From Escherichia coli (lineage in GTDB: Bacteria; Pseudomonadota; Gammaproteobacteria; Enterobacterales; Enterobacteriaceae), in assembly GCF_002854065.1 (NCBI RefSeq), contig NZ_CP024147.1: 64,000 bases of DNA; one strand, 5' to 3'. Numbering within the stretch: position 1 is the first letter of the stretch; the number at the start of each line of letters is the position of its first letter. Shown here piece after piece: positions 1,556-10,058 of the stretch. A program made the translations under genes and the position numbers. Under the pieces are notes generated by a model. It did not search any database and was not told where the DNA came from. It worked only from the letters and a program-made list of their open reading frames with translations.

Positions 1556-2323
1556 GGTAATGACTCCAACTTATTGATAGTGTTTTATGTTCAGATAATG
1601 CCCGATGACTTTGTCATGCAGCTCCACCGATTTTGAGAACGACAGCGACTTCCGTCCCAGCCGTGCCAGGTGCTGCCTCAGATTCAGGTTATGCCGCTCA
1701 ATTCGCTGCGTATATCGCTTGCTGATTACGTGCAGCTTTCCCTTCAGGCGGGATTCATACAGCGGCCAGCCATCCGTCATCCATATCACCACGTCAAAGG
1801 GTGACAGCAGGCTCATAAGACGCCCCAGCGTCGCCATAGTGCGTTCACCGAATACGTGCGCAACAACCGTCTTCCGGAGACTGTCATACGCGTAAAACAG
1901 CCAGCGCTGGCGCGATTTAGCCCCGACATAGCCCCACTGTTCGTCCATTTCCGCGCAGACGATGACGTCACTGCCCGGCTGTATGCGCGAGGTTACCGAC
2001 TGCGGCCTGAGTTTTTTAAGTGACGTAAAATCGTGTTGAGGCCAACGCCCATAATGCGGGCAGTTGCCCGGCATCCAACGCCATTCATGGCCATATCAAT
2101 GATTTTCTGGTGCGTACCGGGTTGAGAAGCGGTGTAAGTGAACTGCAGTTGCCATGTTTTACGGCAGTGAGAGCAGAGATAGCGCTGATGTCCGGCGGTG
2201 CTTTTGCCGTTACGCACCACCCCGTCAGTAGCTGAACAGGAGGGACAGCTGATAGAAACAGAAGCCACTGGAGCACCTCAAAAACACCATCATACACTAA
2301 ATCAGTAAGTTGGCAGCATCACC
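1556..2323 (-). mobile_element. insAB: IS1 copy 1 (768 bp; insA 1993-2268, insB 1571-2074 on minus strand), variant isoform
   Basis: Terminal inverted repeats GGTAATGACTCC...GCAGCATCACC; InsA/InsB ORFs; perfect 9-bp direct target duplication AAATACTCG at 1547-1555 and 2324-2332. Several residues differ from copies 2 and 3. Confidence 0.95.
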
Positions 2324-2653: not shown

Positions 2654-3562
2654 ATGAAAGCACCTGTTTCATTAACCTCATTTCGCCCACAAAAATCTCT
2701 TGCTATCGCCATCGGCGTGCTTGCCGTGGTTGTGCTGCCATTTCTCTCGTATTACACCGTTAATGAAGGTGAACGCGGCATTTTGCTGCGCTACGGAAAA
2801 ATCGTAAAAGTTGCCGAGCCGGGTCTGGGTTTTAAGATCCCGTTTATGGAAAGCGTGGAGAAAATTTCCACGCGTAATCAGGCTGTGGTCTATCAGGGAT
2901 TACAGGCCTACAGCCGCGACCAGCAACCGGCACAAATGACAGTATCAGTCAGCTTCCACATTAAACCTTCAGAAGCAGGCGCGGTTTATACCACCTACAA
3001 CACCATTGAAGCATTAAAAGATCGTCTGATTGTCCGTCAGTTGCCAACTCAACTGGAGAACGTTTTCGGCCAATATACCGCCATCAGCGCTGTACAGGAT
3101 CGTACAAAACTGGTTCAGGATCTGCAAAATGCCATGCGCAAAGCCGTTGTTGGGCCAGTGGTAATTGACGGGGTCCAGATTGAAAATATTGATTTTTCTG
3201 ACGCTTATGAAAAGTCGATTGAAGACCGAATGAAAGCAGAAGTCGCCATTGCCACGCGTAAGCAAAATCTGGAAACAGAGAAAATCCAGGCGCAAATAGC
3301 GGTAACTCAGGCCCAGGCAGAAGCAGACAGTAAACTGGCGGCAGCCAAAGCAGAAGCGGAAACTATTCGCGTAAGAGGCGCGGCAGAGGCTGAAACTATT
3401 CGTTTAAAAAGTGCGGCTGAAGCAGAAGCAATCCGCCTGCGCGGTGAAGCTCTGCGGGATAATCCCGGACTTGTAGCCCTCACCACTGCCGAACGTTGGG
3501 ACGGTAAACTGCCCGATACCATGATCCCCGGCAGCACAGTTCCGTTTATCTCTACTAAGTAA
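2654..3562 (+). CDS. SPFH/band-7 (flotillin-like) membrane protein with C-terminal Ala/Glu-rich 11-aa tandem repeats
   Basis: 302-aa ORF with N-terminal hydrophobic anchor, SPFH-like core and three repeats AEAETIRVRGA/AEAETIRLKSA/AEAEAIRLRGE; AT-rich upstream region 2330-2650; no K-12 gene at this position as far as I recall. Confidence 0.7.
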   Translation: MKAPVSLTSFRPQKSLAIAIGVLAVVVLPFLSYYTVNEGERGILLRYGKIVKVAEPGLGFKIPFMESVEKISTRNQAVVYQGLQAYSRDQQPAQMTVSVSFHIKPSEAGAVYTTYNTIEALKDRLIVRQLPTQLENVFGQYTAISAVQDRTKLVQDLQNAMRKAVVGPVVIDGVQIENIDFSDAYEKSIEDRMKAEVAIATRKQNLETEKIQAQIAVTQAQAEADSKLAAAKAEAETIRVRGAAEAETIRLKSAAEAEAIRLRGEALRDNPGLVALTTAERWDGKLPDTMIPGSTVPFISTK

Positions 3563-3564
3563 AA

Positions 3565-3590
3565 AAAGGGCCGCTTTCGCGGCCCTTGAG
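3565..3590. terminator. Stem-loop terminator downstream of the SPFH gene
   Basis: GGGCCGC-TTTC-GCGGCCC perfect hairpin preceded by an A-run; the same 22-bp sequence recurs at 3741-3762. Confidence 0.6.
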
Positions 3591-5773: not shown

Positions 5774-6050
5774 TTTGACTCCAGATCGGATGATGAAGGG
5801 CACGCCCTTAACGACTTGACGACAGCGCGTTTTGGGCTACGCCGGAAAATTTGCCAACAATTTACCGCAAGCCGCGCGTCATGTACATGGAACATCCTTT
5901 TGCCGCTTCAGAAATCTCTGGATCATGCTCGCATGTTGCGCAATCTACTCGCCCGTCCGCTGCGCTTTTCCTTATACTGAGACTGAGCGTCGGTTCACCT
6001 GCAAACGGCGCATTTTTAGAATAATCCTGACCTTGTGCGGAAGAAAAAAC

Positions 6051-6809
6051 ATGAAAATTCGCGCCTTATTGGTAGCAATGAGCGTGGCAACGGTACTGAC
6101 TGGTTGCCAGAATATGGACTCCAACGGACTGCTCTCATCAGGAGCGGAAGCTTTTCAGGCTTACAGTTTGAGTGATGCTCAGGTGAAAACCCTGAGCGAT
6201 CAGGCATGTCAGGAGATGGACAGCAAGGCGACGATTGCGCCAGCCAATAGCGAATACGCTAAACGTCTGACAACCATTGCCAACGCGCTAGGCAACAATA
6301 TCAACGGTCAGCCAGTGAATTACAAAGTGTATATGGCGAAGGATGTGAACGCCTTTGCGATGGCTAACGGCTGTATCCGCGTCTATAGCGGGCTGATGGA
6401 TATGATGACGGATAACGAAGTCGAAGCGGTGATCGGTCACGAAATGGGGCACGTGGCGTTAGGCCATGTGAAGAAAGGGATGCAGGTGGCACTTGGTACA
6501 AATGCCGTGCGAGTCGCGGCGGCCTCTGCGGGCGGTATCGTCGGCAGTTTATCGCAATCACAGCTTGGTGATCTGGGCGAGAAATTAGTCAATTCGCAAT
6601 TCTCCCAGCGCCAGGAAGCAGAGGCGGATGATTACTCCTACGATTTACTGCGCCAACGCGGCATCAGTCCGGCAGGTCTTGCCACCAGCTTTGAAAAACT
6701 GGCAAAACTGGAAGAAGGTCGCCAAAGCTCAATGTTTGACGACCATCCAGCATCCGCCGAACGCGCCCAGCATATTCGCGATCGTATGAGCGCGGACGGG
6801 ATTAAGTAA
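6051..6809 (+). CDS. loiP: Periplasmic metalloprotease LoiP (YggG), lipoprotein
   Basis: 252-aa ORF from MKIRALLVAMSVATVLTGC with HEMGH zinc motif; ATG at 6051; the track ORF is an upstream extension. Confidence 0.9.
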   Translation: MKIRALLVAMSVATVLTGCQNMDSNGLLSSGAEAFQAYSLSDAQVKTLSDQACQEMDSKATIAPANSEYAKRLTTIANALGNNINGQPVNYKVYMAKDVNAFAMANGCIRVYSGLMDMMTDNEVEAVIGHEMGHVALGHVKKGMQVALGTNAVRVAAASAGGIVGSLSQSQLGDLGEKLVNSQFSQRQEAEADDYSYDLLRQRGISPAGLATSFEKLAKLEEGRQSSMFDDHPASAERAQHIRDRMSADGIK

Positions 6810-7125
6810 GGCATGGTGGTGCCAAACGTAGTTCAGATAAGGCATTTACGCCGCATCTGACATAAATGGCACATTCACTACCTCGTGCGCATTGCCGGAT
6901 GCGATGCTGGCGCATCTTATCCGGCCTACGGGTGCCAAACGTAGGTCAGATAAGGCGTTCACCCCGCATCTGACATGAATGGCACATTTGTTACCTTGTG
7001 CGCATTGCCGGATGCGATGCTGGCGCATCTTATCCGGCCTACGGGTGCCGAACGTAGGTCGGATAAGGCGTTCACGCTGCATCCGACATTAATGGCACGT
7101 TTTACCCGTGCGCATCGCATCTGGT
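6810..7125. repeat. Three tandem REP/BIME units
   Basis: About 100-bp unit (GTGCCAAACGTAGGTCAGATAAGGCG...CCGCATCTGACA...GCGCATTGCCGGATGCGATGCTGGCGCATCTTATCCGGCCTAC) repeated three times between loiP and speB. Confidence 0.8.
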
Positions 7126-7127
7126 GC

Positions 7128-8048
7128 TTACTCGCCCTTTTTCGCCGCCTGAATATACAGCATTTCCAGCGCCAGCGTTGCCGCTGCCAGAGCGGTGATT
7201 TCCGACTGATCGTATGCCGGAGCCACTTCCACTACGTCCATCCCAACGATGTTGAGATCTTTCAGGCCGCGTACCAGTTTAATAGCGCGATCGGAGGTCA
7301 GACCGCCAATTACCGGCGTACCGGTTCCCGGCGCAAATGCAGGATCCAGGCAGTCGATATCAAAGGTCAGGTAAACCGGCATATCACCCACAATTTGTTT
7401 CACCTGGGCGATAACGTCATCCACGCTGCGATCGTTCACCTGGCAGGCGTCCAGCACGGTAAAGCCGTTGTCTTTATCAAATTCGGTACGAATACCAATC
7501 TGCACGGAATGATTCGGATCGATCAGACCTTCTTTCGGCGCGGTATAGAACATGGTGCCGTGGTCAAATTCACAACCGTTCGCGTAGGTATCGGTGTGGG
7601 CGTCAAAGTGTACCAGCGCCATTTTGCCGAAATGCTTCGCATGAGCACGCAGCAGCGGCAGCGTAACAAAGTGGTCACCACCGAAGGAGAGCATACGCTT
7701 ACCGGCAGCCAGCAGCTTCTCGGCGTGTGCCTGCAGTTTTTCGCTCATCTCACGGGCATCGCCGAAGGCATATACCAGATCGCCGCAGTCCACCACGTTC
7801 AGACGCTCGCGCATGTCGAAATTCCACGGGAAGCGGTTGTGTTCCCAGGCCAGGTTAGTCGAAACCTGGCGAATCGCCGCCGGGCCATGACGACCACCGG
7901 CACGGCCAGAGGTGGCCATGTCGAACGGCACGCCGGTGATCACCCAGTCGGCATCGCTGTCATACGGCTGGAAGTTCATCGGCAGGCGTAAAAAACCAAA
8001 GGCGTTGGAAACCAGTGAGTTATCGTATTGATGACCTAAGGTGCTCAT
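7128..8048 (-). CDS. speB: Agmatinase
   Basis: 306-aa ORF, arginase-fold sequence recognised as K-12 SpeB. Confidence 0.95.
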
Positions 8049-8183
8049 GGATGGACTCCTATTACAAAGTCGATATAAAAAAACCCTTCCGCGTCGTTAG
8101 GCCCGACGAGGAAGGGTTGGATTTGCGAAACACAAGTTTGTGCTAATTATCGCCTTAAATGGGCGAGGCATCAAGCGAGGTTG

Positions 8184-8650
8184 CTATTTCCGACACGGTG
8201 GCGGCGCATAGCCATTGTTATCTGCCGGAAAGGCTTGTCCAGAGCACGGCGGCAGCGCGTTTTGCGCCTGGCCTTGTAATTCAAAGGCGGCAAAGCCGAT
8301 TACACCGGTATTACGCACATCGCCTTGCGCCGAATTGGCTGCGTAGGAATCAGCAACGTTGGCGAACTGAAAAGCCGCTTCGGTATGTTTATCTTTGCGG
8401 AATCCTTTAATCGCTAACGAATCTCCGGCATTCACAATATAGCCGTTGTTATTCAGCGAACCTTGCTTGCCGTTCAGCACATCCAGGCCATCAACCGTAG
8501 CAACGATCTCGTAGTTGGTGTTACGACTGTAATTACGAACATATAATTGATAATTCATTCCGACTCTGGCGTGGACAATATAGCGTGGTTCATTATTGGA
8601 TGAATCATAAACACGCGTAATAGGTAGAGAATTAAAATTACCATCGCGAA
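8184..8650 (-). pseudogene. 3' portion of an IS1-disrupted lipoprotein gene; its 5' portion is at 44235-44508
   Basis: Minus-strand reading frame is open right up to the IS1 end at 8651; joining rc(8184-8650) to 44235-44508 across the 9-bp duplication is in-frame and restores a 245-aa lipoprotein. Confidence 0.8.
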
Positions 8651-9418
8651 GGTAATGACTCCAACTTATTGATAGTGTTTTATGTTCAGATAATGCCCGA
8701 TGACTTTGTCATGCAGCTCCACCGATTTTGAGAACGACAGCGACTTCCGTCCCAGCCGTGCCAGGTGCTGCCTCAGATTCAGGTTATGCCGCTCAATTCG
8801 CTGCGTATATCGCTTGCTGATTACGTGCAGCTTTCCCTTCAGGCGGGATTCATACAGCGGCCAGCCATCCGTCATCCATATCACCACGTCAAAGGGTGAC
8901 AGCAGGCTCATAAGACGCCCCAGCGTCGCCATAGTGCGTTCACCGAATACGTGCGCAACAACCGTCTTCCGGAGCCTGTCATACGCGTAAAACAGCCAGC
9001 GCTGGCGCGATTTAGCCCCGACGTATCCCCACTGTTCGTCCATTTCCGCGCAGACGATGACGTCACTGCCCGGCTGTATGCGCGAGGTTACCGACTGCGG
9101 CCTGAGTTTTTTAAATGGCGGAAAATCGTGTTGAGGCCAACGCCCATAATGCGGGCGGTTGCCCGGCATCCAACGCCATTCATGGCCATATCAATGATTT
9201 TCTGGTGCGTACCGGGTTGAGAAGCGGTGTAAGTGAACTGCAGTTGCCATGTTTTACGGCAGTGAGAGCAGAGATAGCGCTGATGTCCGGCAGTGCTTTT
9301 GCCGTTACGCACCACCCCGTCAGTAGCTGAACAGGAGGGACAGCTGATAGAAACAGAAGCCACTGGAGCACCTCAAAAACACCATCATACACTAAATCAG
9401 TAAGTTGGCAGCATCACC
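8651..9418 (-). mobile_element. insAB: IS1 copy 2 (insA 9088-9363, insB 8666-9169); left end of the inversion
   Basis: 768-bp IS1 with IRs; ORF translations identical to copy 3; outer flank CATCGCGAA (8642-8650) is the reverse complement of the 9 bp preceding copy 3 (44500-44508). Confidence 0.95.
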
Positions 9419-10058
9419 CTCATGGGGTTATACATCAGCCGGGATTTCAAAAGCCTTCGGTGATGATAAATATCAACAGCAGTATTTATCACAGCGCAGC
9501 GGGTTTGCTATAGGTGAGGATGGTTTTGCATGGGGCCGCATGGACTATGATTCCGCGCTAATTGTCGATGCTACGGATTTGCCCGAAGATCAGTATTTCG
9601 AGGTGCGTAATCGTAATTCGGCACCAACGATTGTAAAAGGTGGTCAGAAAACAACGCTTTCTATGGAGCCGTATCGTAAGGTCGCACCAGAAGCTGAACA
9701 ACTCTACAGCAATAATATGGATGCTTATTACAATCTGAAAACGGAGTCTACTTCTACCTGGGCGAAACCAGGGCAAGTTTATAAAGTTAAACTTTCCGCA
9801 ACCCGGAATCTGACCGTCACCGGACGCCTTTATTTTGACGGTCAACCGTTGATTAACGCCAGGGTCGTTGGTGGGAATGCAATGGCAGATACTGATGGCT
9901 TATTTGTTGGTGATTTTACACTCCAGACAAATGAACAACTTAAATCTGTGAAAGTTAAACAAGACGGGCGTGATTTCATCTGTCCACTGCTGGATGAAAA
10001 TATCAAACTTGCGCAGGGTATTATGCAAATTCGTGAGGTTAATTGTGAAGTTCAATAA
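9419..10058 (+). pseudogene. C-terminal fragment of a fimbrial usher, 5' part removed at the IS1 junction
   Basis: No start codon; frame open from the IS1 boundary; ends with a Cys...Cys tail (CPLLDENIKLAQGIMQIREVNCEVQ) typical of usher C-termini; sits directly upstream of a CS1-type chaperone gene. Confidence 0.5.

Follow-up and report, generated by a model that had tools for sequence, protein, structure and literature searches.

IS1-mediated inversions and deletions are well described in Escherichia coli and Shigella, and inverted copies of an insertion sequence commonly give rise to inversions. The locus analyzed here, contained in a 64,000-nucleotide stretch of an E. coli genome (hereafter the window), belongs with these systems: two inverted, identical IS1 copies likewise bound a segment of DNA, the target duplications have been exchanged between them, and a flanking deletion begins exactly at an IS1 end. 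There is no unusual feature in this arrangement, which can be regarded as a textbook case.

The gene interrupted by IS1 has its closest counterparts in the loci encoding the RefSeq protein WP_000758914.1, i.e., KFZ60_RS04025 (XJ34), A4C44_RS04595 (O157:H7 strain 2149) and ACNHKQ_RS18905 (CUWW06). They encode the same protein, at the same position between speA and speB, as the gene that can be restored from the window. The three loci are intact, whereas in the window IS1 interrupts the gene at nt 274, and the halves are located 36 kb apart on opposite strands. The preliminary description of this DNA had reported the 36-kb separation and the pseudogene state, and both were borne out, with an IS1 element present at each break; it had also called the gene unannotated, which does not hold, as RefSeq lists the protein under the names 'lipoprotein', 'hypothetical protein' or 'membrane protein'. 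What the window contains is a pseudogene, disrupted by IS1 and split by inversion, of a lipoprotein that is catalogued but functionally uncharacterized. We consider it very probable that it arose by insertion of an IS1 and by an inversion involving another IS1 already present next to a fimbrial usher gene. More tentatively, the product of the intact gene may be a non-essential binding module tethered to the outer membrane, and probably not a polyamine enzyme.

Restoration of the split gene

The 5′ fragment of the lipoprotein gene (gene nt 1-274; 44235-44508, plus strand) comprises 91 codons, including the signal peptide and the lipobox LLAG|C (Cys20). It starts with the ATG at 44235 and its frame is open until 44508, with IS1 following from 44509. 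The 3′ fragment (gene nt 275-732; 8184-8641, minus strand) ends with a stop codon at 8184-8186, and the minus-strand frame is open from 8650, where it abuts the IS1 end at 8651, down to this stop. When 44235-44508 and the reverse complement of 8184-8641 were joined in silico, a sequence of 732 nt was obtained, whose length is divisible by three and which contains 0 internal stops; the halves thus join in frame with the 9-mer counted once, as had been proposed. The restored ORF (MKKWKVRSALVALIVLLAGCSS...GYAPPPCRK) encodes 243 aa followed by a stop codon, and not the 245 aa given earlier. The other reported traits of the product were recovered, namely the lipobox, an Asn/Tyr-rich middle (13 N and 7 Y within residues 91-165) and the PPPC tail (YAPPPCRK).

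The frame evidence for joining the two halves is weak, because 9 bp is a multiple of three and the reading frame is preserved with or without removal of the 9-bp duplication. What is decisive for considering the halves as one gene is the match to a contiguous, intact counterpart: the restored DNA is identical (732/732 nt, 100%) to the E. coli XJ34 gene, and of 5426 complete E. coli genomes, a collection that does not include the source genome, 3551 (65%) contain the gene at ≥80% coverage. Both halves belong to one protein family, and the restored protein is the annotated RefSeq protein WP_000758914.1.

Without restoration, the frame of the 5′ fragment continues into IS1 and gives a 92-aa ORF (44235-44513), terminated by an IS1-encoded Gly-stop; exactly the same 92-aa product has been called in other genomes too. 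The fragment has retained its upstream region and could yield this 92-aa lipoprotein stub, which is the most that can be produced from what is no longer a functional lipoprotein gene. The 3′ fragment lacks its own promoter, start codon and signal peptide, and contains a residual internal ORF of 124 aa (8184-8558). The 92-aa stub, the internal 124-aa ORF and an IS1-initiated (chimeric) 217-aa usher remnant have been deposited as separate proteins and are now called separate 'hypothetical' ones. In the annotation, both fragments should carry one pseudogene label, and the 35-kb segment should be marked as an IS1-bounded inversion, which also uncouples speA from speB.

Native locus and distribution

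The upstream neighbor of the gene is speA, encoding the biosynthetic arginine decarboxylase (42113-44089, plus strand), while the downstream neighbor is speB, encoding agmatinase (7128-8048, minus strand); a distance of 36 kb now separates it from speA, and the two genes lie on different strands. The order yqgB-speA-lipoprotein-speB-loiP-tkt was found in XJ34, O157:H7 strain 2149 and CUWW06, where the gene is intact and annotated 'lipoprotein'; the earlier placement of one lipoprotein gene between speA and speB is in agreement with the contiguous arrangement of these strains. A terminator-like hairpin with a U-run is located directly after speA (44106-44139, plus strand; dG −23.4 kcal/mol, z −7.5; L001 3872-3905), and another one after the lipoprotein stop codon (8075-8118, also delimited as 8082-8118, minus strand; dG −24.4 kcal/mol, z −4.6), just upstream of the speB ribosome binding site (RBS). 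The intact gene looks like a monocistronic unit bracketed by these two hairpins. A promoter scan around the gene gave 3 hits against 2.3 expected, i.e., chance level.

Strain K-12 MG1655 has no lipoprotein gene, and its speA-speB spacer (L003 2799-2935) is 137 bp long, close to the length of about 140 bp that had been given for it. Comparison with the window (44090-44234 and 8049-8183) showed that the last 77 bp of the spacer, with the second terminator hairpin and the speB RBS, are common with the lipoprotein-positive allele, while the first 60 bp are unrelated. The K-12 allele is no clean deletion: a 60-bp sequence without a match stands for approximately 935 bp of the lipoprotein-positive allele.

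Orthologues with 60-75% identity occupy the same site after speA in Salmonella and Klebsiella; the full speA-lipoprotein-speB order is kept in Klebsiella, while in Salmonella speB is not adjacent. By this shared position the gene is an old resident of the locus, lost by K-12 and approximately 35% of E. coli genomes, and not a recent accessory gene. The term 'accessory', applied to it earlier, is correct with respect to its variable presence among complete E. coli genomes, but does not fit the site that it shares with its Salmonella and Klebsiella orthologues.

The predicted lipoprotein and its family

The signal region of the restored product (MKKWKVRSALVALIVLLAG|C) has a basic n-region, a hydrophobic h-region and a lipobox of the form [LVI][ASTVI][GAS]C, and by these sequence criteria the product is a predicted lipoprotein and a substrate of signal peptidase II. 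Cys20 is invariant in 40/40 aligned diverse homologues. The residues following the cut are C20-S21-S22-N23; Asp is absent from position +2, and Ser at this position implies, by the +2 rule, that the protein would be sorted by the Lol system to the outer membrane.

In the AlphaFold2 model, built on the 40-sequence alignment (mean pLDDT 79.7, pTM 0.75), residues 34-213 form one all-beta sandwich, mostly with pLDDT >90, while the linker (residues 19-30) and the tail (residues 218-243) have pLDDT <50; the flexible linker comprises approximately 13 residues. The invariant polar and aromatic residues of the sandwich are R53, Y66, Y122, N128, E136, D142, Y159, R173 and Y191. The tail, with the motif FPxD..YAPPP, is predicted to be disordered yet it is conserved (A228, F229, P230, Y236, A237, P239 and P240), and in the enteric members it contains two cysteines, Cys224 and Cys241.

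Among 1.84 billion cluster representatives, a profile search assigned 4208 to the family at E≤1e-3; with a threshold of E≤1e-30, the number was 535. The named members, mostly labelled 'outer membrane lipoprotein' or 'uncharacterized', originate from Enterobacteriaceae, Providencia, Proteus, Pseudomonas, Acinetobacter, Moraxella and Kingella, as well as from Ralstonia, Variovorax, Comamonas, Paracoccus and the myxobacterium Chondromyces. No Pfam match was found at E≤10 for the query or at E≤0.001 for 40 family members; NCBIfam gave only signal-peptide-level matches far below the cut-off, PADLOC no match, PHROGs only matches at E>0.02, and PDB no match by phmmer or by profile. A literature search found no paper naming the gene. 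The family, large and conserved, has a fold that is predicted with confidence, but no family model, structure or phenotype.

Fold searches revealed a weak and generic resemblance to Ig, MATH or DUF7918 domains and yielded no functional lead. The lipoprotein has no detectable sequence relationship to the MATH/TRAF beta-sandwich or to fungal DUF7918 (9-23% identity in structural alignments), and differs from both in being bacterial, predicted to be lipid-anchored and predicted to be periplasmic or surface-located, as well as in having an extra N-terminal strand module and the YAPPP tail. Some distant family members contain long low-complexity N-terminal linkers. Two members (P0252 and P0268) are circularly permuted, with the sandwich placed first, followed by a low-complexity linker, a 'GTxYGE..S.V' strand module and, as the last element, an RRYAPPPP tail; their architecture suggests a modular build of the family.

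The gene neighborhoods of eight distant homologues have no genes in common: such homologues were found inside the his operon, between thrS and recO, beside galETK, beside sucAB and one gene away from a putative speG. A look-up for P0100 returned no record. In three Comamonadaceae-like loci (L004, L005 and L006) a 39%-identical homologue (6001-6813) lies inside the histidine operon, in the order hisG-hisD-lipoprotein-115-aa ORF-hisC-hisB-hisH-hisA, and, like the E. coli gene, it is enclosed by genes that belong to a single biosynthetic pathway. For the 115-aa ORF next to it, Pfam gave no match.

With low confidence, we read the intact product as a non-essential module of the envelope that would be anchored in the outer membrane and bind a protein, peptide or glycan, with the tail as a putative docking peptide. 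The binding-module idea draws on the weak fold resemblance of the model, and the invariant residues E136, D142 and R173 may just as well belong to a catalytic site.

IS1 elements and inversion of the intervening segment

The plus-strand IS1 (44509-45276, 768 bp) adjoins the 5′ gene fragment with its IRL, while the minus-strand IS1 (8651-9418, 768 bp) adjoins the 3′ fragment with its IRR and a truncated usher gene with its IRL. The two copies are in inverted orientation and differ by 0 mismatches over 768 bp; both have the terminal inverted repeats GGTGATGCTGCC... and ...GGAGTCATTACC and contain the insA/insB ORFs. The 9-bp target duplication TTCGCGATG (gene nt 266-274) is located to the left of the plus-strand IS1 (44500-44508, plus strand), and its second copy, whose reverse complement is TTCGCGATG, at 8642-8650 (minus strand). 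The intact XJ34 gene contains TTCGCGATG only once (L013 43752-43760), at the overlap of the alignment blocks (L013 43751-43760), and as a result of the inversion the duplication is now divided between the two IS1 copies. No target duplication was found at the other two IS1 junctions (9419 CTCATGGGG and 45277 CACGCAAAG), because of a 1,887-bp adjacent deletion and because the partner IS1 has no duplication even in CUWW06, so the history around this partner seems to be more complex.

A third IS1 (1556-2323, minus strand), with 8 mismatches to the other two, is flanked on both sides by the 9-bp duplication AAATACTCG; it is a simple, unrearranged insertion and serves as an internal control. A fourth IS1, suspected at 59138-59641 from a 167-aa ORF of InsB length, proved not to be IS1 by sequence and inverted repeat searches.

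Alignments to XJ34 and CUWW06 showed that the segment 9419-44508 of the window is inverted with respect to both. It begins with the usher remnant, continues with a type VI secretion system (T6SS) remnant, pheV, yqgA and speC, and extends as far as metK, speA and the lipoprotein gene's 5′ fragment. The window region 17475-44509 is in forward orientation to XJ34 L013 16718-43760 (99.07% identity), while the flanks, in the opposite orientation to the segment and collinear with the reference, correspond to the reverse of L013 48840-43751 (3561-8650; 99.98% identity) and of L013 6718-1 (45613-52331; 99.96% identity). GC skew is +0.028 for 17475-44508 and −0.005 and −0.071 for the flanks, and this opposite sign backs the inversion weakly.

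The partner IS1 can be traced in CUWW06, a near-identical relative, which matches the usher region, a rare one, at 100% over 2.8 kb. The gene order of CUWW06 is glcB-glcA-winged-helix (wHTH) regulator-IS1-usher-three small genes-T6SS remnant-pheV-yqgA-speC ... speA-intact lipoprotein gene-speB. The window region 44508-45621 is identical (100%) to CUWW06 L030 7114-6001, and the junction between IS1 and 45277 is the IRR junction of the CUWW06 IS1, which is placed there downstream of the wHTH regulator gene. The junction at 9419 corresponds to L030 9001, and 1,887 bp of usher sequence beside IRL are absent from the window.

The genetic event can be reconstructed as follows. The ancestor had the arrangement glcA-wHTH regulator-IS1-usher-T6SS remnant-pheV ... 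metK-speA-lipoprotein-speB-loiP-tkt, which CUWW06 has retained. A second IS1 then entered the lipoprotein gene at nt 266-274, duplicating TTCGCGATG, and was oriented from IRL to IRR in the direction of the gene, i.e., oppositely to the usher IS1. Given this opposite orientation, homologous recombination between the two copies would invert the approximately 35 kb between them, and each copy would keep one lipoprotein flank. The 5′ third of the gene, together with speA, is now found at 44235-44508 (plus strand) and the 3′ two thirds, together with speB, at 8184-8650 (minus strand), each part having one IS1 beside it and one copy of the duplication. An IS1-adjacent deletion of 1,887 bp has also removed most of the usher gene. 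The preliminary description offered no account of the 36-kb separation, the cause of which, as reconstructed here, is the inversion between the two inverted IS1 copies. We place high confidence in this genetic reconstruction (insertion and inversion), made for one assembly; the event is real but ordinary, and represents routine IS-driven genome decay.

Recurrent insertion of IS1 into the gene

IS1 insertions in the lipoprotein gene were also mapped elsewhere: at nt 231 (P0287), nt 241-249 (DS26-1), nt 250-258 (LY180), about nt 255 (S. dysenteriae Sd197 SDY_3135, 90 aa), nt 263-271 (FDAARGOS_1259), about nt 349 (an S. flexneri fragment, P0309) and nt 538-546 (GN25). The site at nt 266-274 is occupied by IS1 in forward orientation in the window and in L015, and in reverse orientation in CP055786.1, L016 and L017. 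In U1 and CUVET20 the element lies in the promoter region (−62 to −54). At least seven independent events from E. coli and Shigella map to gene nt 231-274 (window 44465-44508 / 8642-8650), and 7 of the 9 mapped genic IS1 events are thus confined to 44 bp of the 732-bp gene (binomial 9e-8; the loci and proteins providing this evidence include L014, L016, L017, L020, L021 and L022 as well as P0284 and P0287).

These truncated alleles have in common with the window the inactivation of the same gene, mostly at nt 231-274, and CP055786.1 has even the identical 9-bp target. They are independent of it, as judged from differing positions or the opposite IS1 orientation, and their host backgrounds are 1.5-3% different. 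In those whose flanks were read the halves are adjacent and there is no inversion, unlike in the window. The 44-bp stretch is AT-rich, with an identical 9-bp target used in both orientations, and the clustering is better explained by a hot spot for IS1 targeting than by selection acting on the protein. The modest wider value of the locus lies in the uncharacterized protein family and in this sharply localized, natural IS1 target hot spot inside a lipoprotein gene.

Alternative explanations

The insertion itself may be real while the separation of 36 kb results from an assembly error or represents only one of two isomers present together; in cells, a single IS1 would then interrupt the gene, and its halves would be adjacent. 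Identical inverted repeats are a setting in which short-read assemblers may mis-orient a segment, or in which both orientations coexist in a culture, and the two IS1 copies of the window, 100% identical over 768 bp, provide such a setting. Moreover, IS1 is present at the same site without an inversion in other genomes (L014), and the metagenome contig with the same junction (L015) ends inside IS1 and thus does not confirm the inversion. We nevertheless find this explanation improbable, as the source record is a single 4,639,454-bp contig, suggestive of a finished assembly, the junctions fit a reciprocal exchange in which every IS1 has one lipoprotein flank and one usher/regulator-site flank, and inversions between inverted IS copies are common. 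A different objection concerns not the inversion but the meaning of the knock-out, which could be convergent inactivation and not neutral decay, if repeated loss of the protein were advantageous, e.g., of a surface receptor for phages or colicins, or of an anti-virulence factor in Shigella. Independent knock-outs do exist: IS1 has interrupted the gene in S. dysenteriae, S. flexneri and, at several sites, E. coli; there are frameshifted alleles that number hundreds of members, and K-12 shows a full deletion. The confinement of most genic insertions to the short AT-rich hot spot, in both orientations at one target, and the intact state of the gene in 65% of the complete genomes of E. coli, O157:H7 among them, speak against such an advantage, which we consider unlikely. 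We would give equally little credit to the related proposal that the gene represents a pan-proteobacterial family of outer membrane lipoproteins with a MATH/DUF7918-like sandwich and a YAPPP docking tail, whose knock-outs reflect the selected loss of an envelope interaction module.

The position of the gene might also point to a tie with polyamine metabolism, such as sensing or handling of agmatine or putrescine at the envelope, which would account for the conserved location between speA and speB. The gene directly follows speA in E. coli, Salmonella and Klebsiella, and a 40%-identical paralogue of Trabulsiella has a DUF1161 gene on one side and a UPF0257 lipoprotein gene on the other, with a gene for an acetyltransferase of approximately 185 aa one gene further; these three probably correspond to ynfD, ynfC and speG of K-12, respectively. 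Synteny within one family is, however, expected from vertical descent, strong terminator hairpins isolate the gene from both speA and speB, speB is not its neighbor in Salmonella, the neighbors outside the enterics (his operon, recO, galETK, sucAB and thrS) are unrelated, and 35% of E. coli genomes, that of K-12 included, make polyamines without it. The terminators on both sides, the unrelated contexts outside Enterobacteriaceae and the absence from K-12 also speak against a component of a speAB operon. The link to polyamines is accordingly very unlikely, and we do not think that the lipoprotein is an enzyme of polyamine metabolism. The reading preferred here remains that of an IS1 insertion and an IS1-mediated inversion in the gene of a lipoprotein predicted to be tethered to the outer membrane.

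Other features of the window

The usher remnant (9405-10058, plus strand; junction 9418/9419) belongs to a fimbrial usher of the CS1/CFA-I class, TcfC-like and 853 aa long when intact. It has been cut to the C-terminal part of approximately 214 codons by the 1,887-bp deletion, which starts exactly at the IS1 IRL; the remaining ORF begins at a TTG inside IS1 and has been deposited as WP_249824097.1. The usher cluster is present in 8 of 5426 complete E. coli genomes.

A degenerate T6SS remnant (12717-17123) is located beside the tRNA-Phe gene pheV (17484-17559, minus strand), with no integrase. It contains (i) a frameshifted tssB (by the CUWW06 annotation), (ii) tssC (13246-14793), (iii) tssK (14812-16149) and (iv) a 325-aa ORF (16146-17123), in which a TssL/DotU N-terminus is fused to a C-terminal fragment of the Wadjet protein JetD.

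The winged-helix transcriptional regulator (45464-46069, minus strand; 201 aa) is intact in the window, while in CUWW06 its gene is split by a further IS1 and in XJ34 it is IS1-truncated; several independent IS1 insertions have therefore accumulated in this small region on the downstream side of glcA. An IS200C element located in XJ34 between tkt and a prohibitin-family gene (L013 48841-49545) is absent from the window (3561-3566).
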